The notes beneath the pieces are model-generated. The model ran no database searches. It was not told the origin of the DNA and worked only from the letters and a program-made list of their open reading frames with translations. Shown here one piece after another: positions 1,507 to 44,509 of a stretch of 44,509 nucleotides of DNA. Every line of letters starts with the position of its first letter. The first letter of the stretch is position 1. Origin of the DNA: a virus. The position numbers and the translations under genes were made by a program. Where the stretch lies: the UHGV virus genome UHGV-0169625. The stretch is one strand, 5' to 3'.

Positions 1507-2133
1507 TTAACGGCGACGACGTTCTCGGCGCGGTGCTTCATCTTCTTCTTCGTCTTCCAGGTCGTCGACACTTGCAGCTACTTTAGAACCGCCGAACGCT
1601 TTACCTTCGCCGACGTATTTAATAGCCAGCAGGTTAACGCCGAGGACTTTGTATTTCTGGCTGAACCAGATTTCAACGCTTACGTTAGCGACGCAGCCGC
1701 TGTAAACCTGTTCACCTTCAATCTGTTCCCCGTCTACGTTGAAGTCCTGTTCTACCTGAGTCTCACCCTTTTTAGAGGTTACGATCAGTGGCTGTTTCTG
1801 TGCCTTCGCTTTGAAGTAGAAGCCTTCCGGGAAGTCTTCAAACGGATTGTCGCGCTCGGCAATGTCTTTAATCGCGCATTTATCCATGTGCTTCCCTTCG
1901 CCGTAGTTGGACTTCATCCATTTCTCGGCAGCGGCTGCGCCTAACGCTTCTTCAACTACAGCGTAAACTGTGTCGTAGAGCGCGTCGATTTGCGCATGGT
2001 CAGACGACAGAATGATAGTCGCGCTGTACTGACCTTTAGTGATTGAGCCATCATCGTTTTCACGGTCTTTTTCGCGTTCGAATACGTTAACCCAAGCAGT
2101 GTTTACTTTACGCAGATTCAGTTTCAGTCCCAC
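1507..2133 (-). CDS. putative ssDNA-binding protein (T7 gp2.5-like architecture) with acidic then basic C-terminal tail
   Basis: 208-aa ORF, GTG start with GAGGG SD; C-terminus SVDDLEDEEEDEAPRRERRRR; sits in replication block; family assigned from recollection of pattern, not searched. Confidence 0.45.
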   Translation of the reverse strand: MGLKLNLRKVNTAWVNVFEREKDRENDDGSITKGQYSATIILSSDHAQIDALYDTVYAVVEEALGAAAAEKWMKSNYGEGKHMDKCAIKDIAERDNPFEDFPEGFYFKAKAQKQPLIVTSKKGETQVEQDFNVDGEQIEGEQVYSGCVANVSVEIWFSQKYKVLGVNLLAIKYVGEGKAFGGSKVAASVDDLEDEEEDEAPRRERRRR

Positions 2134-2229: not shown

Positions 2230-2385
2230 TTATTTAAACGTTTCTTTTGTCATACGGATAATTTTCGCCGACTCGTCTCTAATTACCATACTGAATACAC
2301 GGTATACGGCTTTGCTCCGGCCTAGCTTTGCTCCGTTTCGGTGTTGTTGTAGATAGCTTTTATGCAGTTCTTGAATCGTGCTCAT
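2230..2385 (-). CDS. hypothetical small protein (51 aa)
   Basis: ATG at 2385 overlaps stop of upstream nuclease gene (ATGA), GGAGGA SD 7 nt upstream; track ORF 2230..2415 trimmed to this start. Confidence 0.4.
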   Translation of the reverse strand: MSTIQELHKSYLQQHRNGAKLGRSKAVYRVFSMVIRDESAKIIRMTKETFK

Positions 2386-3647
2386 TCCAAATCCTCCTCT
2401 GTTACCTGATTCCACTCAGGACGTTTGTCGTCCGCCGTTGCGACACATGGTGCACCCGGCTTACGTGTGATAAATGGCTCAAGCGCTGCCATCTCATCTG
2501 CCGAAAGAACTTTTGCCGCCTCCGTAGGGGACATCAATACCTCTTTTTTGAGAATGTCTCCGTGCGACACTTCAATCGCATCGGCGTCTTTCCACGCACG
2601 ATTACCAGGACGACCTTCTACCAGCTTGTACCCCGGTACTTTTTTACCGGAATGCAACGCAGCAGCCATCGCTTTCTCAACCTTGTCGATGTGCTGGCGC
2701 AACAACGGCAACTTCTCATACTCAGCTACAAGTTGCTCTGGCGTAAGTTCCAGTGCAAAGTCGTCTTCCAGTTCTTCCGCCAGTACATCGTTAACGGTTT
2801 TTGTACGCGCGGCGCACTGTTCCGAGAACCGACACCACTGACAACCGTCGACAGACGGCCGGAAGTCCGACGCTTTCAGGTTCTTCTTACCTCGGGAATA
2901 AGCATCAAGCGCTAACAGTGCTCGTTTCTGCGCGAACTTAGCGAACAGTTCCAGGCCTTCAACCGAGATGTCCCACTCCGACGCACCGCCCGCGTACGGC
3001 TGGAAGATGACCAGACGAACAGTCGTTATGTTATAACGTCTCTTGAGCCGGCGATAAACACCGAGAGCATAGAGCATAAGCTGCTTGTTTTCTTTCGCTT
3101 CGACACGATGCCGTCCAGTTTTCAGGTCGCCGATGATAAGCATGTGCTCGTCGGTGTTAGCCAGTTCCTGGACGGCAACAAGGTCAGCAGTTCCGAACGT
3201 CTCAACGCCTTCATACCCCGGATGCAACACCTCAGTAAGATTGACACGCATCTCGAGCTTCGCATAAGTCGCTACGTCGATAATCGGTTTGCAGTAGTCC
3301 GTGTACTTGCGCACCTGCTCAATCATGTCCGCCGTAATCAGTACCGCGCCTTTCATCGGACTGATTAGTGCCTTAATCTGACCTTTACCTTCATCCAGCA
3401 CGTAAGCGCCGACTTCACGCTCTAAAGGCAACGCAGTGCCTTTGATGTACTGGTTTAGATGGACCTCAGCTATGGTGTGCATGGCTGTACCTAATACAGC
3501 GGCTTTACCCGACGTGTTAGGAATATCTTTTTCACAAGCCAGAGATGCACTGCACGCCAGCCACTTTTTAGCGCCTGATGGTGACAGTAATGCGTGAACA
3601 TCGTTATTGCCACCGCGTTCCTTTAAAATCATACCCTGTTCTCCCAC
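2382..3647 (-). CDS. PD-(D/E)XK nuclease, Cas4/RecB-like (DUF2800-type) with 4-Cys cluster
   Basis: 421 aa; IIGDLKTGRHRVEAKENKQLMLYALG matches the D...ExK...QxxxY nuclease core; N-terminal Cys plus C-terminal CQWCRFSEQC resemble the Cas4 Fe-S cluster ligands; ends in acidic tail VTEEDLE. Confidence 0.6.
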   Translation of the reverse strand: MGEQGMILKERGGNNDVHALLSPSGAKKWLACSASLACEKDIPNTSGKAAVLGTAMHTIAEVHLNQYIKGTALPLEREVGAYVLDEGKGQIKALISPMKGAVLITADMIEQVRKYTDYCKPIIDVATYAKLEMRVNLTEVLHPGYEGVETFGTADLVAVQELANTDEHMLIIGDLKTGRHRVEAKENKQLMLYALGVYRRLKRRYNITTVRLVIFQPYAGGASEWDISVEGLELFAKFAQKRALLALDAYSRGKKNLKASDFRPSVDGCQWCRFSEQCAARTKTVNDVLAEELEDDFALELTPEQLVAEYEKLPLLRQHIDKVEKAMAAALHSGKKVPGYKLVEGRPGNRAWKDADAIEVSHGDILKKEVLMSPTEAAKVLSADEMAALEPFITRKPGAPCVATADDKRPEWNQVTEEDLE

Positions 3648-3901
3648 TGGTCAATTAAATGCCTGGTCTTGTGGTCGCAATGTAAGGCCCACCCATACAT
3701 CGACTCGAAGACATAAAAGTCAGGTTTGGCGAAAGTTGTGCGCTTAATCTGTGACACGTGACGGCCAATATCTTTATGCCGTGGTACTTTGCCTAAGTAC
3801 GCCATCTCTTCCATCTGGTGAGCACCGGACGGCGCACGCAATAGCCATAGCGCCTCTGTGTTATCCCGCCTGTCGACGGCGCGGTAGAGTTGGTAAATCA
3901 T
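3629..3901 (-). CDS. hypothetical protein (90 aa)
   Basis: track ORF in minus-strand operon, overlaps start of downstream nuclease gene by 19 nt; no recognisable motif. Confidence 0.35.
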   Translation of the reverse strand: MIYQLYRAVDRRDNTEALWLLRAPSGAHQMEEMAYLGKVPRHKDIGRHVSQIKRTTFAKPDFYVFESMYGWALHCDHKTRHLIDQWENRV

Positions 3902-3944
3902 AATTCCGACCCTCAGTTAAAGCGGCCCGAAGGCCGCGGGATAG

Positions 3945-4463
3945 TTATTCTTCTTCGAAATACTTGTTCTTGATTGCCATCAGGCGTTCCAGGTACTCGG
4001 CCAGGTCTTCGTCTTTAATCGCAGCAATCTTCATCTTCTTACCCGTGAACTCCTCCAGCAGTTCATCAGAATCGTCGCACGCGGCGTCGCTCGGGCCTTC
4101 GTTAATCGCATCGTCGATAGCCTGAATCTGGTCACGAAGAGACTGATAATCGACTTCCTTATCCTCTTCCGGCTCTGGCGTTGGTTCCTCTACTTTAGCT
4201 TTACGCGGCTTGCGTTTCGGCTTCTCTTCCTCCGCAGGTTTAGTGTCGACGATGTCTTCACCTTCAACCGGGATTTCTTTCGCCTTCTCGACTTCTTCAA
4301 GTGCTTTAGCCAGTTCTTTTTTAACTGTCTCTACCCCAGTTACCGCGACGTCAACAGTCAATTCACCTACAGATTTGCTAGTCGGTTGTTTCACACTGTT
4401 TGCAGCAATCAGTTCGTGGGCGACTACGAAACGTTCCAGTAATACTAAGAATTTCTCTAACAT
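3945..4463 (-). CDS. hypothetical acidic protein (172 aa)
   Basis: ATG at 4463 with GAGGAGAG SD; first gene downstream of leftward promoter 4495-4523; Glu/Asp/Lys-rich, ends YFEEE. Confidence 0.5.
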   Translation of the reverse strand: MLEKFLVLLERFVVAHELIAANSVKQPTSKSVGELTVDVAVTGVETVKKELAKALEEVEKAKEIPVEGEDIVDTKPAEEEKPKRKPRKAKVEEPTPEPEEDKEVDYQSLRDQIQAIDDAINEGPSDAACDDSDELLEEFTGKKMKIAAIKDEDLAEYLERLMAIKNKYFEEE

Positions 4464-4494
4464 TTGTTTCTCTCCTCTCGTTTGGTATGGGCTA

Positions 4495-4523
4495 ACTATA
4501 ATAGTGAACTATTCACATGTCAA
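4495..4523 (-). promoter_or_regulatory. sigma70-like promoter (leftward) with embedded palindromic operator
   Basis: minus strand TTGACA (4523-4518), 17-nt spacer, TATAGT (4500-4495); plus strand 4498-4515 reads ATAATAG-tgaa-CTATTCA. Confidence 0.55.
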
Positions 4524-4541
4524 TGGGCTTTTCTAAAATAA

Positions 4542-4559
4542 TTAATATGGTACTATTCA
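4542..4559 (+). promoter_or_regulatory. operator-like site overlapping extended -10 (TGgTACTAT) upstream of the HTH regulator gene
   Basis: TTAATAT-ggta-CTATTCA (degenerate copy of the recurring palindrome); TACTAT at 4551-4556 preceded by TG; weak -35; about 30 nt upstream of ATG 4588. Confidence 0.35.
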
Positions 4560-4587
4560 CATATCAACTAACTAAGGAGTAATTGTC

Positions 4588-4803
4588 ATGCAACCATCTG
4601 AACTAGGCATCCGTGTAGAAAAACGCCGTAAAGAACTCGGCATCTCCCAGCGCCGTCTGGCGGTGCTGACCGGGGTTTCCCAGGGCGCAATTAACCAGCT
4701 GGCACTTGGGGTAACCCAGGACGTCCGCCCGGCAACGCTGTTTAAACTGGCGGAAGTGCTGGAGGTAGACGCCAAGTGGCTGGCGCTAGGTGAAGGGGCT
4801 TAA
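4588..4803 (+). CDS. XRE-family (Cro/CI-type) helix-turn-helix transcriptional regulator
   Basis: 71 aa; ISQRRLAVLTGVSQGAINQLALG is a classic HTH_3 signature; AGGAG SD; the only plus-strand gene inside the minus-strand replication block, divergent from operator-bearing promoters. Confidence 0.8.
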   Translation: MQPSELGIRVEKRRKELGISQRRLAVLTGVSQGAINQLALGVTQDVRPATLFKLAEVLEVDAKWLALGEGA

Positions 4804-4820
4804 CGCCCCTTTCTTTTTAC

Positions 4821-7061
4821 CTATTCCAAATCCTCTTCTGTCACTACCAGCATTTCATTCGGTTCGTATATTGTCTTCGGTCTTAGTCTATCCCCTATTC
4901 TTTCAGGTATACGATACGTTCTCGGTACTACTTCGCCATTAGCATCACAGCCTAGCATTAGTTCACCATCTTTCAGCATTTTATCAAGATGGGTGTTAGT
5001 CACAGAAAAGTCACCGGAACGGGCCACTATCTGCTGCTGAGTAAAACCGCGACCTGTGTCATCTGACTGTTGCAGGTCTTCCAGTGCCGAAAGTATCGAC
5101 TCCTTCCTTACTTCATCCCTGCCGCGTTTAACTTCTTCCTTTACTTTTTGTTTACCTTCGTTAGTTAACCCTTCTTCCCGCTCCTTCTCCTCGTCAGTTT
5201 TGAACGGCTCGAAGCCCCACGGCATCAGAACAAGCGCCTTGTGTGGTTCCGGCAGGTCGAGGTTTACGATTGTGCCGTATTCCTCTGTGCTGCCCAGGAA
5301 CTCAACAGCACGGTACTCTTTCGGCGGTGGTGCTTCACGGAACTGTACAGACTCCAACACCATGCCAACCGTTTTCTGTTGAGGGCCGTGCTTAAATTTT
5401 GAGTGGTATACGTTTATCTGACGGTCGGTTGCGCGTTCAATTGTCAGTTCCACGTCGACCCCAGCATACAACGCCCCGCTGCCACGGGCTTTCTTTCCAC
5501 CTTTCGGTGTATGGTGGACAACACCCACCGCGGCTTTGGTTGCGTCGCGTACTTCTTTCAGGATGGCGATAACCTTACCCATGCCGATTGCCGTTGATGA
5601 ACTGTTCTCGTCGAACTTATCAATCGTCAGGGCCAGTGTCTGGTTGAGAGTATCGAACGCGACCATGCCGATGGGTTCGCCACCCGCAGTTTCTCGCATT
5701 AGCTTAATCAGGCTTTTCAGTTTGCCAACTTCGCCCATATCGATGACATGTACATAATATTTACCTTCCTCGCCGTATTTAGCCGCGAGTGCATCAATAC
5801 GGGTGCGTGTGGCAGCACCGCCCTCGCCGTCAATATAGAAATGGTGGCAACGCTGTGTATCAGCGCCGGCAAACCGGTACCCGGCGGCGCTCAGGTACAT
5901 CATCCCCAGCGTATAGAAGGATTTGTACGTGCCGGATTCCCCGACGATGTCCCAGATGCAATCCGAGGGCATGTACCCTTCAACGACGAAATCAGCCTTT
6001 ACCGGTTCAGGTAACTCGTCCTCCTCTGAGCCTTCGTCATCTTCCAGGTCGTCCAGGCTGCATGAAACGGACTCTCGCGCACCCCAACCGATAGCCTCTG
6101 CTACTTCACTGAATGGCAGCCCGGTCGCATCGCACGCATACTTCCACACCTCTTTCGGTGACATGCCTTCGGTTGCCGTAATGTCGGTGTCGTGAATCAT
6201 GGTTACGTTTGGCGCGGCGTAACCCTCTCGCGGAAAGCACAGCAGGAAATCATCCGGGCGTGGCGTCGGGTCGCTGTAGTTTTCTGCGTGTTCTGGTGTG
6301 GCAGGCATTTTAAGGCCGCGGGGTGTCATAATACCGCCATACTCGAATGCCAGTGCTTCAAACGCATCGGTAAACGCAGTGCGCAGTTCTTCCGGTATCT
6401 GGTAATCCGATGCGCTGCTAACGTCAACGGCGGGGATGCCTTCCAGCAGTTCTTCCGGGTCAATCAGGTCGTTGCGGCGCGACCAAATAACGGTAGAGCC
6501 AACCGGCGGCAGGTACATCGGCTGCGACAGAGTGAACCCGCTGCGGTCAGCGCCCATGCCTTTGAAGAAGTGCTCGAGCAATCCGTGGCGAACGCGGATG
6601 ATGTCGCCACCTTCGACCGGGCGACCAAGCGGCATAACGACGCGAAAGCGCGGTGACCCATCGGTATGTGATGCCGTGGTATAGAGGCACATGGCCAGGC
6701 GGCTGCGCTTAACCAGGTGCACAGCTTCCTGATACTCTTCCGGCGTTGCACTGTCGAAGTCCAGGTAGGCCAGTGATGATTTGCTTACAGAGGCGTCGCA
6801 GCGATAGAAGAAGCCTTTACGCGCTTGCTTAAAGTCCCCGGTTTCCTGGTCTTTTACGGTGCTGTGTGTTGAGTCGCACGCGGCTGTGATATAGCCGGGC
6901 GCGGTCTTAGGGTTAACCCCATCACGAACAGCATCGAGCGGCCGGATTAACTCTTTCAGGTCGTCCAGTGTTGCCGTGTGTGTGGTTCTGACGTTTATAT
7001 CCTTTTTCTCTGCCCGCGCGTTGCGACGAGACCACGAGTAGGATAAAATTACATCGGACAT
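4821..7061 (-). CDS. putative primase/replicative ATPase (prim-pol-like N-terminal domain plus P-loop-like ATPase domain)
   Basis: 746 aa; LAYLDFD (DxD) and TASHTDG resemble archaeo-eukaryotic primase motifs; central GESGTYKS P-loop-like and VHHTPKGG segments; ends in VTEEDLE; assignment by motif only. Confidence 0.5.
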   Translation of the reverse strand: MSDVILSYSWSRRNARAEKKDINVRTTHTATLDDLKELIRPLDAVRDGVNPKTAPGYITAACDSTHSTVKDQETGDFKQARKGFFYRCDASVSKSSLAYLDFDSATPEEYQEAVHLVKRSRLAMCLYTTASHTDGSPRFRVVMPLGRPVEGGDIIRVRHGLLEHFFKGMGADRSGFTLSQPMYLPPVGSTVIWSRRNDLIDPEELLEGIPAVDVSSASDYQIPEELRTAFTDAFEALAFEYGGIMTPRGLKMPATPEHAENYSDPTPRPDDFLLCFPREGYAAPNVTMIHDTDITATEGMSPKEVWKYACDATGLPFSEVAEAIGWGARESVSCSLDDLEDDEGSEEDELPEPVKADFVVEGYMPSDCIWDIVGESGTYKSFYTLGMMYLSAAGYRFAGADTQRCHHFYIDGEGGAATRTRIDALAAKYGEEGKYYVHVIDMGEVGKLKSLIKLMRETAGGEPIGMVAFDTLNQTLALTIDKFDENSSSTAIGMGKVIAILKEVRDATKAAVGVVHHTPKGGKKARGSGALYAGVDVELTIERATDRQINVYHSKFKHGPQQKTVGMVLESVQFREAPPPKEYRAVEFLGSTEEYGTIVNLDLPEPHKALVLMPWGFEPFKTDEEKEREEGLTNEGKQKVKEEVKRGRDEVRKESILSALEDLQQSDDTGRGFTQQQIVARSGDFSVTNTHLDKMLKDGELMLGCDANGEVVPRTYRIPERIGDRLRPKTIYEPNEMLVVTEEDLE

Positions 7062-7119
7062 GTTGTATTTCCTTCAGCAAGTAATTTGGCCTCGGCGTTC
7101 ACCGCGTCGGGGCTTTCTT

Positions 7120-7353
7120 TTATTCCAGGTCTTCTAAAGTAGCGGTCATTCCGCGAACTTCAGCAACGGCGCTATATTTCCCGCCAACATTTTTCACGAC
7201 ACCAGATTTAACCAGCACCTTCAACGACCCTTCAATAATGGCTGAACTATAGTACTTAAAATAACTACGGCGCAAGTCAATAACGCTACACGACCCTTTT
7301 TTACGTGTTAACGAAACGACTGCTGTAAATACGCGTGACTGAAACTCGGTCAT
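7120..7353 (-). CDS. hypothetical protein (77 aa), C-terminus LEDLE
   Basis: track ORF, start overlaps upstream gene stop; no domain recognised. Confidence 0.45.
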   Translation of the reverse strand: MTEFQSRVFTAVVSLTRKKGSCSVIDLRRSYFKYYSSAIIEGSLKVLVKSGVVKNVGGKYSAVAEVRGMTATLEDLE

Positions 7354-39197: not shown

Positions 39198-39709
39198 CTG
39201 GTAAATTTCCTCGCAAGATACGTTATTTCTTCTTCACAAAGTTCATCGAGGTCGTTAGATACAAATCCTCTGGTGAATGTTTTGCTGAACTTTAAGCCCG
39301 CTTTATCATTGTCACCGGCGCACACCCATTCATACGGCAAAAGTGACATTTGCTGCCGTAAGTCAGCTGGTATGTTCGACCCCAATGCGCTAACTGCATT
39401 AAACCCGCAATTCATCAAAGCAACAGCTTTAAATATGCTTTCGGTAACAAATACCACCCCGCTACTTGGCAAATACTCAAGTCCCCATAAACACGGCCTT
39501 GTTGTTCGGGTAAAGTACCGCGCATCCTTTGGGTTCTTGCAGTTCTTTTCAGCATGTGGCTTGTAATGCTGGTACCCGCGTAGCTTACCGTCAAAACCCC
39601 ACAGGTAAAACGTAGCTACTCCAGGGCCTAAGACTACACGTAAACGGTCCGCGTCAAAACCTCGTGACAGCAGATGCGCCTTAAGTAGTAACTCCTCGCC
39701 GTCCATCAT
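39194..39709 (-). CDS. TOPRIM-domain protein (primase-like)
   Basis: 171 aa; VFVTESIFKA (conserved Glu) and CAGDNDKAG (DxD) match TOPRIM motifs. Confidence 0.5.
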   Translation of the reverse strand: MMDGEELLLKAHLLSRGFDADRLRVVLGPGVATFYLWGFDGKLRGYQHYKPHAEKNCKNPKDARYFTRTTRPCLWGLEYLPSSGVVFVTESIFKAVALMNCGFNAVSALGSNIPADLRQQMSLLPYEWVCAGDNDKAGLKFSKTFTRGFVSNDLDELCEEEITYLARKFTR

Positions 39710-41049
39710 TTCTTACCTCGTCTCTTCATGTAATTAAGCAACTCTTCCTGTACCGATTTCTTCTCGTCCGTACGCGCGGCAACAACCTCATCCAGTGTGT
39801 CTTTAGCGACGATGTGATAGAGGAACACCGGGCGCTCGTGCCCCGCCTGCTTCTGGCGAACAGGGCCTATGCGCTCGACAACCTGCAAATAGTGTTCAAG
39901 GTTCCAGCCTTGTGAGATGAACGCCAGATGATGCCCGCCGTCCTGTAAATTCAAACCATGACCGGCTGACGCAGGGTGCACGCATAAAATCTCGATTTCA
40001 CCACGGTTCCATGCTTCCATCTGCTTGTTCCCCTTAGCGCCTTTGGCGAACGCCTGTGCCTGTGGGAATCGCTTAAGGATACGCTCCAGTTCGTGTTTAA
40101 ACTGATAGGCTACCAGCAACGGCTCACCCTGCAACTCCTCAACAATCGACTCGAGCGCATCCAGTTTCGTGTCGTGCACTTTCTCCCAGTCTTTGGTCGC
40201 TTCGCCATCCGGCCCTGACACATACACGGCACCGGATGCAATCTGCAAACATTTCGACGTCTTCGCCGCGGCGTTAGCCGCTTCGACTTCTCCGCTCTCC
40301 AGCTCAGCGAATAACTTCTCCTCCATATCGATGTACGCCTGACGCGCTTTCTTCGGCAGGTCGATTTCAACCGGCACAATAATCGGCGCTTCACAACCGA
40401 ACCACTCGGCAGGGTCGATGGTCAGGCTGATGTCTTTCATCTTCTGATGAATTTCATTATCTGCACCTGGTCGCGCATGATATTCACGCGCCATAGCCGA
40501 CTTACCTTTCTGTACCGAGTTAAACCAGCGGTCTGTGAATGCCGTATACGAAGAGCCGAGGCGCTCGCCAGCGTCGATAAACCAGTTCTGACCCCACAAG
40601 TCTTTGAGGCCGTTTGGTGACGGTGTGCCAGTCAGGTTGATGAAACGCTTAACCTTTCCGAACGCAACCTTGCTGAGCGCCTTTGCCCGCTTGCTACCAC
40701 CCGAACGGCTGCGGAACGATTTAAGCTTCGTGCTTTCATCGGCAACGATAACCGTAAAAGGCCAGTCGTCTTTGCCGTAGTAGTCAATTAGCCACTCGAT
40801 AACTTCGTAGTTAGTGCACACCACGTTAGCATCTGACTCCAGCCCCCCGATGGCGCCCTTCTCCGCACCACATGCATCTAACAAACCCAGACAACCGGAA
40901 TCGCCCTGTCGTGTTGGCGTTAGTTGCCAATTCGCCAGCCTAAATTTGGGTTTTTTGTCAACACCACGTTCCCATCTCACTCCCGGGCCGCGAGGGGGCG
41001 CTTCTCCGAACCAGTTGCATCTACGACACGCAGACAAGGGAATTGCCAT
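39706..41049 (-). CDS. SNF2-family helicase, C-terminal ORF (lacks Walker A)
   Basis: 447 aa; VIVADESTKLK (motif II-like), LTGTPSPNGLKDLW (motif III); N-terminal 50 codons read a diverged duplicate segment in an alternative frame. Confidence 0.6.
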   Translation of the reverse strand: MAIPLSACRRCNWFGEAPPRGPGVRWERGVDKKPKFRLANWQLTPTRQGDSGCLGLLDACGAEKGAIGGLESDANVVCTNYEVIEWLIDYYGKDDWPFTVIVADESTKLKSFRSRSGGSKRAKALSKVAFGKVKRFINLTGTPSPNGLKDLWGQNWFIDAGERLGSSYTAFTDRWFNSVQKGKSAMAREYHARPGADNEIHQKMKDISLTIDPAEWFGCEAPIIVPVEIDLPKKARQAYIDMEEKLFAELESGEVEAANAAAKTSKCLQIASGAVYVSGPDGEATKDWEKVHDTKLDALESIVEELQGEPLLVAYQFKHELERILKRFPQAQAFAKGAKGNKQMEAWNRGEIEILCVHPASAGHGLNLQDGGHHLAFISQGWNLEHYLQVVERIGPVRQKQAGHERPVFLYHIVAKDTLDEVVAARTDEKKSVQEELLNYMKRRGKK

Positions 41050-41273
41050 TTCTCTTGTTCAGCGGGCCACGTACCGGACGCAACACGTAACGGGGCAAGG
41101 ATTAACACGCGGTCCTCTTCCGTAAGCTGCCCGTTGCGGAACAGGCGGTTGAGCACCCACATAGTGGAGGAGGTTTTACCTCCCCCCATTCCGCACCAGA
41201 TATTACAGCGCGGGTGTTGCAGCATGAACGAAGTCATGAGCTTCTGGTATTCGCGCCTTTGAAACTTACTCAT
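40977..41273 (-). CDS. SNF2-family helicase, N-terminal fragment with Walker A
   Basis: 98 aa; CGMGGGKTS Walker A and LILAPLRVASGTWPAEQEKW; terminates at TGA inside a diverged duplicate segment, different frame from the C-terminal ORF. Confidence 0.5.
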   Translation of the reverse strand: MSKFQRREYQKLMTSFMLQHPRCNIWCGMGGGKTSSTMWVLNRLFRNGQLTEEDRVLILAPLRVASGTWPAEQEKWQFPCLRVVDATGSEKRPLAARE

Positions 41274-43774: not shown

Positions 43775-44509
43775 CTACTTGGCGTATCTGTACATTTCGC
43801 TGCCTTCTGCAACCAAAGGGAAGCCTTCTGCCCATTCCGGTAATTCGCACATCAACCGCTCAAGCTCTGCGACATTGTATTCCGGTAAATCTGGCGTCTC
43901 GCAGATAATCTCATCGTGTACGTGAAGTACAATCGGGTAGCCGTTTGCTTCTACGTTCAGCAGTGCATTAGCCAGCAAATCACGGCACAGCGCCTGAGTA
44001 CAGTTTTCCACCAGTTTACCGGAGTAGGTGTACTGGAATCCCCACTGACGAGTTAACTGGTTTTCTCCCTGATACTTGATGCGCACGTTAGTAGACACCT
44101 TTCCATCTTCGTCTGTCTCTTTCGACACGCTCAATCCGACGCCGGGGTAGGACATAACGCGGCCAGACGGCAACGTCATACGCAACCACCAACCGGCGAC
44201 CTTGTTGCCGTTGTTGTCCGTTTCTACGTTGCGCGAAAACTTAACACCCCGCGGCCCTGCAGTGAACTCTTTACCAGGATTGCGGATGGCCGCCATAGCC
44301 GCGTCTTCAATATCGCGCCAGAATTGTACTATCGCCGGATTGGCCTCTCGGTACATGCGTTTCAGAGCGTCACATGTTCTCCATACTTTCTTATCAAGTA
44401 TATATGATGGTCGGTCATCCTTTTCACCAGGACGCGGTGGTCGCTTGGCGTCCTGAATACGCGCCCACTAGTAACCGCGTGCGGTAGCCCCCCAAATATG
44501 GTCCGGGAA
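43775..44509 (-). CDS. DNA polymerase, family A: C-terminal part incl. motif C; runs off right edge; in-frame TAG at 44468-44470
   Basis: frame of track ORF 43775..44356 (YPIVLHVHDEIICE = motif C) stays open upstream to a TAG at 44470-44468 and again to the window end; same frame as the N-terminal part at the left edge if the window is circular. Confidence 0.75.

Follow-up and report, generated by a model that had tools for sequence, protein, structure and literature searches.

UHGV virus genome UHGV-0169625, the 44,509-nucleotide stretch analyzed here in full (hereafter the window; 44.5 kb), is the complete, circularly permuted genome of a Kagunavirus-like siphophage (Guernseyvirinae), and several proteins of its replication gene block share a short acidic peptide motif, which is the subject of this study. 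The genes of the block all lie on the minus strand and are about 90% identical to those of the E. coli K1 phages K1H and K1ind and of phiWAO78-1, while Salmonella Jerseyviruses are more distant relatives. The proteins that carry the motif are a gp2.5-type single-stranded DNA-binding protein (SSB), a Cas4-like DUF2800 nuclease with four invariant cysteines, as in Cas4 and AddB, a primase-helicase, and a winged-helix protein of 77 amino acids (aa) (Table 1).

A preliminary description of this DNA, made from the sequence alone, had reported that the nuclease and the primase-helicase both end in VTEEDLE, that the 77-aa protein ends in LEDLE, and that the SSB has an acidic DDLE segment near its C-terminus. 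We confirmed all of these: the 77-aa protein ends in ATLEDLE, and the SSB segment reads SVDDLEDEEEDE, followed by APRRERRRR. A further copy, CSLDDLEDDEGSEED, which had not been noticed before and closely resembles the SSB segment, lies inside the primase-helicase. The motif is present on both the SSB (SVDDLED) and the primase-helicase (VTEEDLE and CSLDDLED), and the same holds in seven related lineages. Three of the C-termini read D-L-E and thus close with a charged residue.

Table 1. Copies of the shared motif and genes of the replication region, in positions of the window.
Feature	Position	Strand	Remarks
Nuclease C-terminal tail, VTEEDLE	2385-2405 (codons)	minus	gene 2382-3647
Primase-helicase C-terminal tail, VTEEDLE	4824-4844 (codons)	minus	gene 4821-7061
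77-aa protein C-terminal tail, ATLEDLE	7123-7143	minus	gene 7120-7353
SSB tail copy, SVDDLEDEEEDE	1537-1572	minus	gene 1507-2133; followed by basic extension APRRERRRR
Internal primase-helicase copy, CSLDDLEDDEGSEED	6018-6062	minus	residues 334-348, linker between primase and ATPase domains
gp2.5-type SSB	1507-2133	minus	PF10991 "Enc34 ssDNA-bd"/DUF2815, E=7.5e-15; phrog_112, E=3.1e-41
51-aa gene	2230-2385	minus	phrog_32796, E=6.5e-39; ATGA overlap with nuclease stop (translationally coupled)
DUF2800 PD-(D/E)XK (Cas4-like) nuclease	2382-3647	minus	PF10926, E=1.9e-68; PDDEXK_1
Gene without assigned function	3629-3901	minus	
Very acidic 172-aa protein, without assigned function	3945-4463	minus	phrog_3127
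Cro/CI-type helix-turn-helix gene, convergent	4588-4803	plus	between the 3945-4463 gene and the primase-helicase gene
Primase-helicase	4821-7061	minus	phrog_3228, E=2.3e-296; AAA_25 ATPase
77-aa winged-helix gene	7120-7353	minus	phrog_5169
Family A DNA polymerase, N-terminal part	1-1445	minus	putative receptor
Family A DNA polymerase, C-terminal part	43775-44509	minus	split by the permuted window ends

The shared tails are far beyond chance, and the motif is restricted to these proteins. Among 537 stop-to-stop open reading frames (ORFs) of at least 40 aa, exactly three end in [DE]L[DE], namely the nuclease, the primase-helicase and the 77-aa gene, and only three ORFs in the genome end in DLE. 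The probability that a tetrapeptide is common to at least three of the 68 gene ends is about 1e-5. When the set of 68 proteins was searched with the regular expression [ST]x[DE]DL[DE], five matches were obtained: the three tails, the SSB tail and the primase at residue 335.

The nearly identical 21-nucleotide 3' ends of the nuclease and primase-helicase genes had also been pointed out. The tail codons are indeed identical at 19 of 21 nucleotides, but given the same heptapeptide and the codon usage of the genome this agreement is unremarkable (P ~0.07), and the signal lies at the level of the peptide. The same description had proposed that the nuclease tail doubles as the Shine-Dalgarno (SD) sequence of the following gene, and this is correct: the tail codons hold GAGGAGGA (2392-2399), 6 nucleotides before the ATG at 2383-2385, which overlaps the TGA stop of the nuclease and opens a real gene, the 51-aa member of phrog_32796. 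Downstream of the primase-helicase and 77-aa genes there are terminator-like hairpins and no gene that needs an SD. The overlap is real for the nuclease but is unable to account for the other copies. In about thirty Kaguna/Jersey relatives the peptide is kept while its codons differ by synonymous changes (GAG/GAA, TTG/TTA, ACA/ACC/ACG/ACT and GTA/GTG/GTT). Because of these synonymous changes and the different codons of the 77-aa gene, we conclude that selection acts on the peptide and not on the DNA, as peptide-level purifying selection. In the same relatives, Asp-Leu is encoded by GAT-TTR in the nuclease and primase-helicase genes (2388-2393 and 4827-4832 in the window) and by GAC-CTK in the 77-aa gene (7126-7131), which may be a trace of separate tail origins.

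Conservation in orthologues had been suggested as a check on the motif, and the motif is kept in orthologues down to about 33% identity (overall range 33-64%). A protein database clustered at 90% identity returned only near-identical matches (at least 96% for the nuclease and at least 87% for the 77-aa protein), and deep conservation was judged instead from 50%-cluster representatives, IMG/VR loci and annotated phages. In Jerseyvirus jersey, whose primase-helicase is 64% identical, all three proteins retain the tail, ending in TTEGDLE, TTEDDLE and, for the 77-aa protein, ATPEDLE. The last of these is the informative comparison for the 77-aa protein, since its tail is near-invariant in 14 aligned homologues (one EELE and one EDLA) that are 88-97% identical and therefore carry little weight. 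In Cornellvirus SP-031, Edwardsiella phage eiAU, Dhillonvirus and several uncultured relatives, with nucleases 46-58% and primase-helicases about 33% identical, the nuclease/primase-helicase ends read ATDSDLDD/EEDDLEN, KDDDLVD/ATNSDLED, ATDEDLSNE/ATDDDLKD and SDEDLS/SDEDLNS. Their SSBs carry ATD[DSN]DL[DSG]D straight after the oligonucleotide/oligosaccharide-binding (OB) fold, and in SP-031 the SSB octapeptide ATDSDLDD is identical to the end of the nuclease. The internal copy of the primase-helicase is likewise kept in all of these phages, where seven divergent orthologues read C[TQD]x[ED]DLxD[DE]. The consensus of this gamma-proteobacterial group is [AVT][TS]x[DE]DL[EDS], with an invariant Leu at position -2.

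Phages of both Firmicutes and Gram-negative bacteria have the DUF2800-gp2.5-polA gene trio, which has been described as a recombination/replication module (PMC8093625). In our tblastn search, homologues of the DUF2800 nuclease turned up in 1,512 phage records, with hosts as far apart as Salmonella, Staphylococcus and Bacteroides. We sampled 79 IMG/VR loci and eight annotated phage loci, with replication genes assigned by homology among all ORFs. In most lineages, the SSB and the nuclease have a bipartite tail, [DE][DE]F[DE][DE][LIV]…[DE]L[VIA]-COOH, whose tip is lineage-specific and matches within a genome. In BPP-1 the nuclease ends in …DDFADVSGETVEDLV and the SSB in …DEFDDITEGAAAADLV; the nuclease/SSB tips are ADLI/EALI in locus L048, EAIA/ESLA in L058, DDLA/DDLA in L066 and GDLF/DLLF in L047; and Staphylococcus phage phiSa2wa has AEDDFDKL on the nuclease and AEDDFDEL… on the SSB. 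Matches extend to other proteins: the SSB of Bacteroides phage BF494P1 (YDDLA) matches its primase (YEDDLM), as the SSB of L084 (YDDDL) does its primase (TDDDL), and the SSB of L078 (DDDLVG) matches its helicase (EDLVG). In phage Chi, an end of the form [DE][DE]V is found on the primase, gp4, nuclease, SSB and small terminase, and a WD[DE]E element is common to the nuclease, SSB and helicase. The Chi small terminase (L006, 10743-11312) ends in …DEVDDDEV and the Chi helicase in …GVWDDEE. Among the lineage-specific forms are …DDFxDL…DLV and …WDEDEV. Longer nuclease homologues showed no informative domain fusion.

We next asked how general these features are and whether they vary together. An acidic-F-acidic element was present in the SSB tail of 116 of the 120 top-scoring DUF2815 hits, and an acidic-hydrophobic tip in 100 of them. 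Among 146 nucleases, which are full-length representatives of 50% clusters, 64 have acidic-F-acidic within the last 25 residues (9.4 in control windows) and in 48 of them [DE]L falls among the final five (9.7 in controls); the mean charge of the last 15 residues in this family is -3.2, compared with -0.5 in internal windows. Permutation tests were carried out on 20 loci dereplicated at <50% nuclease identity, with no correction for phylogeny. Nuclease and SSB matched at 20 of the last-three positions against 9.5 expected (p <= 5e-5), and were identical in the last two residues five times against 0.55. For nuclease and primase, exact matches of the last three residues numbered 2 against 0.18 expected (p = 0.009), and the SSB-primase pair gave a similar value (p ~0.009). 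The control pairs in the same 20 loci (nuclease-polymerase, SSB-polymerase and nuclease-helicase) were not significant. A scan blind to protein family recovered nine further ORFs with the same tip against 2.3 expected (p = 0.004). These results demonstrate that tail variants change jointly across the proteins of one genome, over major lineages.

In the SSB alignment, VDDLED of this phage stands opposite DDFDD[IL] of other DUF2815 SSBs, and in the nuclease alignment TEEDLE stands opposite ADDFAD. Based on these alignments, the Leu of this phage is the counterpart of a Phe or Trp in other lineages, where Phe, Trp or Val takes its role; here the residue is neither terminal nor aromatic. Judged by its alignment, the SSB motif is the positional homologue of DDFxD[LIV], a tail motif that nearly every sampled DUF2815 SSB carries.

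The proposal that these tails form a common docking motif gains support from the orthologue conservation, the joint change in remote lineages and the position of the SSB DDLE segment, and the precedent of the T7 gp2.5 and gp4 tails on which it leaned is correct. We consider [AVT]-[TS]-x-[DE]-D-L-[ED] to be probably a short linear motif by which the carriers, much as in T7, dock on one partner that the phage itself encodes. Both the binding of a protein by the motif and the identity of that partner are inferred. The motif sits on apparently flexible acidic segments of the proteins that would work at the phage replication/recombination fork, namely the SSB, the nuclease, the primase-helicase with its two copies and the winged-helix protein. 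Signs of flexible, net-acidic segments include the fall in predicted local distance difference test (pLDDT) score in the tail of the 77-aa protein, the negative charge of the nuclease family tails and the predicted disordered C-terminal region of a homologous Dhillonvirus nuclease. As in T7, a basic-hydrophobic site on the partner would receive the acidic residues along with the one conserved hydrophobic residue, and the carriers would be recruited to this shared site, where they might compete or be handed over. Phages of the same hosts differ in their variants (DLE, DLxxE, WDEDEV), favoring a co-evolving phage receptor over a fixed host one.

As for the receptor, the polymerase is only one of two good candidates. 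The T7 precedent makes the polymerase a plausible choice, though one short of probable. The OB-fold surface of the SSB could also serve, since tails dock there in crystals of T7-type SSBs; we regard this as a fair possibility to entertain, but not the expected outcome. Some other partner, such as the conserved basic C-terminus of the SNF2-type helicase, is the more doubtful option. This helicase C-terminus is conserved in nearly all loci (…LLNYMKRRGKK, …LLEAMKRRRT; 39706-39740 in the window, L005, L048), and, as the sole conserved basic tail in the module, it is conceivable as a partner for the acidic tails.

A speculative extension is that the motif might be a module-wide address label in a reversed SSB hub, in which the SSB, instead of presenting its tail to pockets of clients, would offer the surface on which the tail of the following SSB in a filament otherwise lies. 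Tentatively, this surface might accept the same peptide from the nuclease, the primase-helicase (which would offer two copies per subunit) and the winged-helix adaptor, and in Chi-like phages perhaps the peptides of the helicase and the small terminase as well. If so, the proteins bearing this label could cap or enter SSB-coated single-stranded DNA, and replication, recombination and perhaps packaging would be tied to one evolvable peptide code across DUF2800-DUF2815-PolA phages.

Several observations weigh against the docking motif as we propose it. There are no genome-specific variants within the gamma-proteobacterial group, where similarity is 3.7 of 6 within genomes and 3.6 between them; with a single consensus in this group, the covariation depends on a few deep divergences between lineages, and the permutation p-values ignore phylogeny. 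The nuclease-SSB tip match is absent in L055, L059, L068 and L070. Some Jerseyvirus nucleases have one to four extra residues after DLE or end in EEDL, and the extra residues imply that the motif does not depend on a free C-terminal carboxylate at a set distance. The front basic patch of the T7 polymerase is conserved only in part: the segment aligned with VKWKRR and with K587-R591 of T7 reads VKFSR here, so that it is partly basic, and LKxRR in BPP-1-like phages, while the Chi polymerase has no basic residues to match. In the AlphaFold2 model of the SSB, the core has a pLDDT above 90 and the tail one of 62-73, an intermediate value that indicates neither docking nor its absence.

Among other explanations, one is that the tail acts in cis as a DNA mimic that auto-inhibits the DNA-binding surface of its own protein, with no common partner. 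Such fold-back of a tail is established for gp2.5 and T4 gp32, all four carriers are predicted to bind DNA, and the tails are strongly acidic, that of the SSB being not wholly disordered in its model; the altered DNA selectivity of Enc34 ORF6 after tail deletion points the same way. We nevertheless consider this improbable as the whole explanation, because four unrelated folds are unlikely to pick the same seven-residue motif with the same hydrophobic residue, and joint change between lineages would not be expected. Cis and trans roles coexist in T7, so that auto-inhibition may be an added function of a docking motif.

A docking site on a host protein, such as an SSB-tail-binding protein, the beta sliding clamp or a protease adaptor, is less probable still and seems to us quite unlikely. 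The acidic run with a hydrophobic residue at the C-terminus recalls the tip of E. coli SSB, DDDIPF, and some distant lineages end in DLF, DLI or DLL. However, phages of the same enterobacterial hosts differ (DLE, DLSNE/DLKD, WDEDEV), the last residue in this phage is Glu instead of a hydrophobic one, and the phage has its own SSB, polymerase, primase-helicase and helicase; neither a Gln-x-x-Leu-x-Phe clamp pattern nor an apolar degron is present. A cause at the level of DNA or history (a ribosome-binding or recombination sequence, a recent duplication of a gene end, or chance in acidic tails) is very unlikely, since the 19 shared nucleotides, the SD inside the nuclease copy and the constant GAT-TTR of nuclease and primase-helicase are outweighed by the unremarkable probability of that identity with the peptide fixed, the many synonymous changes, the other codons of the 77-aa gene, the lack of a following gene at two tails, the retention of the motif in lineages with only 33% identity and within the primase-helicase and, for chance, the ORF-end, tetrapeptide and regular-expression counts.

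Known C-terminal signals were considered separately. Mimicry of the E. coli SSB C-terminus (a D-I-P-F-COOH-like tip with a terminal aromatic residue) was ruled out because the tails end in D-L-E. The beta-clamp motif (Q-L-[SD]-L-F or Q-x-x-L-x-x-F) was ruled out because VTEEDLE and ATLEDLE have neither a suitably placed Gln nor a second hydrophobic residue, and an ssrA-like degradation tag (an apolar tripeptide such as LAA) because the C-terminus is charged.

The AlphaFold2 model of the 77-aa protein (pLDDT 88) shows three helices and a beta-hairpin in a winged-helix arrangement, followed by the lower-confidence tail. Structural matches were generic and weak (T4 MotA N-domain, LexA N-domain and RPA32C; best E = 4.5e-3), no Pfam hit was obtained, and comparison with PDB sequences gave two chance-level matches only (E 0.23 and 0.96). 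An origin of the gene as a duplicated primase end was rejected, as it has no sequence similarity to the primase C-terminal region. It is a reasonable guess, and no more, that the protein is a small DNA- or protein-binding adaptor with a replisome address.

Two further tail features were observed. In this phage group, the SSB tail runs on into Arg-rich or alternating acidic/basic blocks, here APRRERRRR (1510-1536, minus strand); extended tails are also found in L002, L003, L004, L026 and L030 (…DDEDEDDDEDEAPRKRRRR), and SSBs of the BPP-1, Chi, Staphylococcus-phage and Bacteroides-phage types are without the Arg-rich extension. The 172-aa protein of phrog_3127 has a conserved C-terminus, [YF][YF][DE]x[DE][DE], which reads …KNKYFEEE here and VETYFELED, VGKYYEVEE or DEFFEFEEE in relatives, and may be a second tail class; this protein also has an internal KDEDLAEY.

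Elsewhere in the replication genes, an excisionase-like helix-turn-helix gene lies in the block on the minus strand. The polymerase gene spans the window ends, where 6 nucleotides (CGGGAA) are duplicated, and contains an in-frame TAG at 44468-44470 (minus strand) in place of a Glu conserved in all relatives (…ARGY-E-WARIQ…), the TAG being an amber mutation or else an assembly error near the contig end. After motif B, polymerases in this phage group have about 45 additional residues that include a basic stretch (…ARIQDAKRPPRPGEKDDRPSY…; ~44330-44480, minus strand); this segment is shorter in BPP-1-like phages and absent from phages of Gram-positive bacteria and Bacteroides. The SNF2-type helicase (39709-41273, minus strand) is split over two reading frames, with residues 1-115 of the 474-aa relatives matching frame -3 and residues 80-474 matching frame -2, suggesting a frameshift, a small duplication or a sequencing error. 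Polymerase ORFs are 1031-1032 aa long in L001, L012 and L021-L023, compared with 733 aa in other relatives, and helicase ORFs are 821 aa long in L001, L021, L022 and L033, compared with 474 aa, suggesting inteins or fused homing-endonuclease genes.

The principle of a docking tail is already known, and the finding, while general and cleanly testable, is not surprising in principle. What is new is the motif itself, its presence on the Cas4-like nuclease, the winged-helix protein and the primase linker, and its joint variation across a large module family. The searchable literature on DUF2800 and DUF2815, which covers gene context, SSB structure and the nuclease as a retron trigger, does not mention a shared tail. 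The DUF2800-DUF2815-PolA module is among the commonest replication/recombination cassettes in tailed phages, and a shared peptide code would give an interaction map that is open to cheap testing. Tails could then predict replisome members, such as the 77-aa protein, Chi gp4 and the Chi small terminase, and could provide handles to engineer or inhibit these phages, some of which are used therapeutically against Salmonella and E. coli K1. A Dhillonvirus DUF2800 nuclease, the one with the predicted disordered C-terminal region, triggers a type IX retron, and the finding thus also bears on defense.

Acidic C-terminal docking tails are textbook features of T7, T4 and E. coli SSB. The E. coli SSB tip is the hydrophobic end of an acidic disordered tail and a shared address for many DNA-metabolism proteins. 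There, one carrier presents the peptide to many client pockets, whereas here many clients carry the peptide, which has another sequence and no Pro-Phe end.

The module described in PMC8093625 consists of the same gene trio; that paper gives its gene context and does not mention the tail motif. The SSB of Enc34, ORF6, belongs to the same family as the SSB of this phage and has an acidic, unstructured tail (PMC5686142). In its crystal, the tail lies on the concave beta-sheet of a neighboring SSB and buries 842 A2, while the last 11 residues, tip included, are not visible; deletion of the tail alters DNA selectivity (PMC5686142). Similar packing of a tail on a neighbor is seen in crystals of two other DUF2815 proteins and of gp2.5. 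The Enc34 work addressed the SSB alone and did not report the same tip on other proteins, whereas the close relative Chi has DEV on five proteins.

In T7, gp2.5 ends in EDGDF and gp4 in NDTDF, and both tails bind, and compete for, basic patches on the front of the polymerase and in its thioredoxin-binding domain; no other T7 protein, gp6 exonuclease included, has an end of this type. The phage studied here differs in its T-x-[DE]-D-L-E sequence with Leu at -2 instead of a D-F end with terminal Phe, in the occurrence of the motif also on a Cas4-like nuclease and a winged-helix protein, in the second, internal copy of the primase-helicase, and in the internal position of the SSB copy before an Arg-rich extension. 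Its primase-helicase is AAA_25/RepA-like, unlike the DnaG-DnaB-like enzyme of T7, and the polymerase, which is the receptor in T7, is here a candidate only. Common to both are a gp2.5-type OB-fold SSB (PF10991, phrog_112), a family A polymerase, acidic tails with one conserved hydrophobic residue (terminal Phe in T7, but neither terminal nor aromatic here), and the same motif on the SSB and the primase-helicase.

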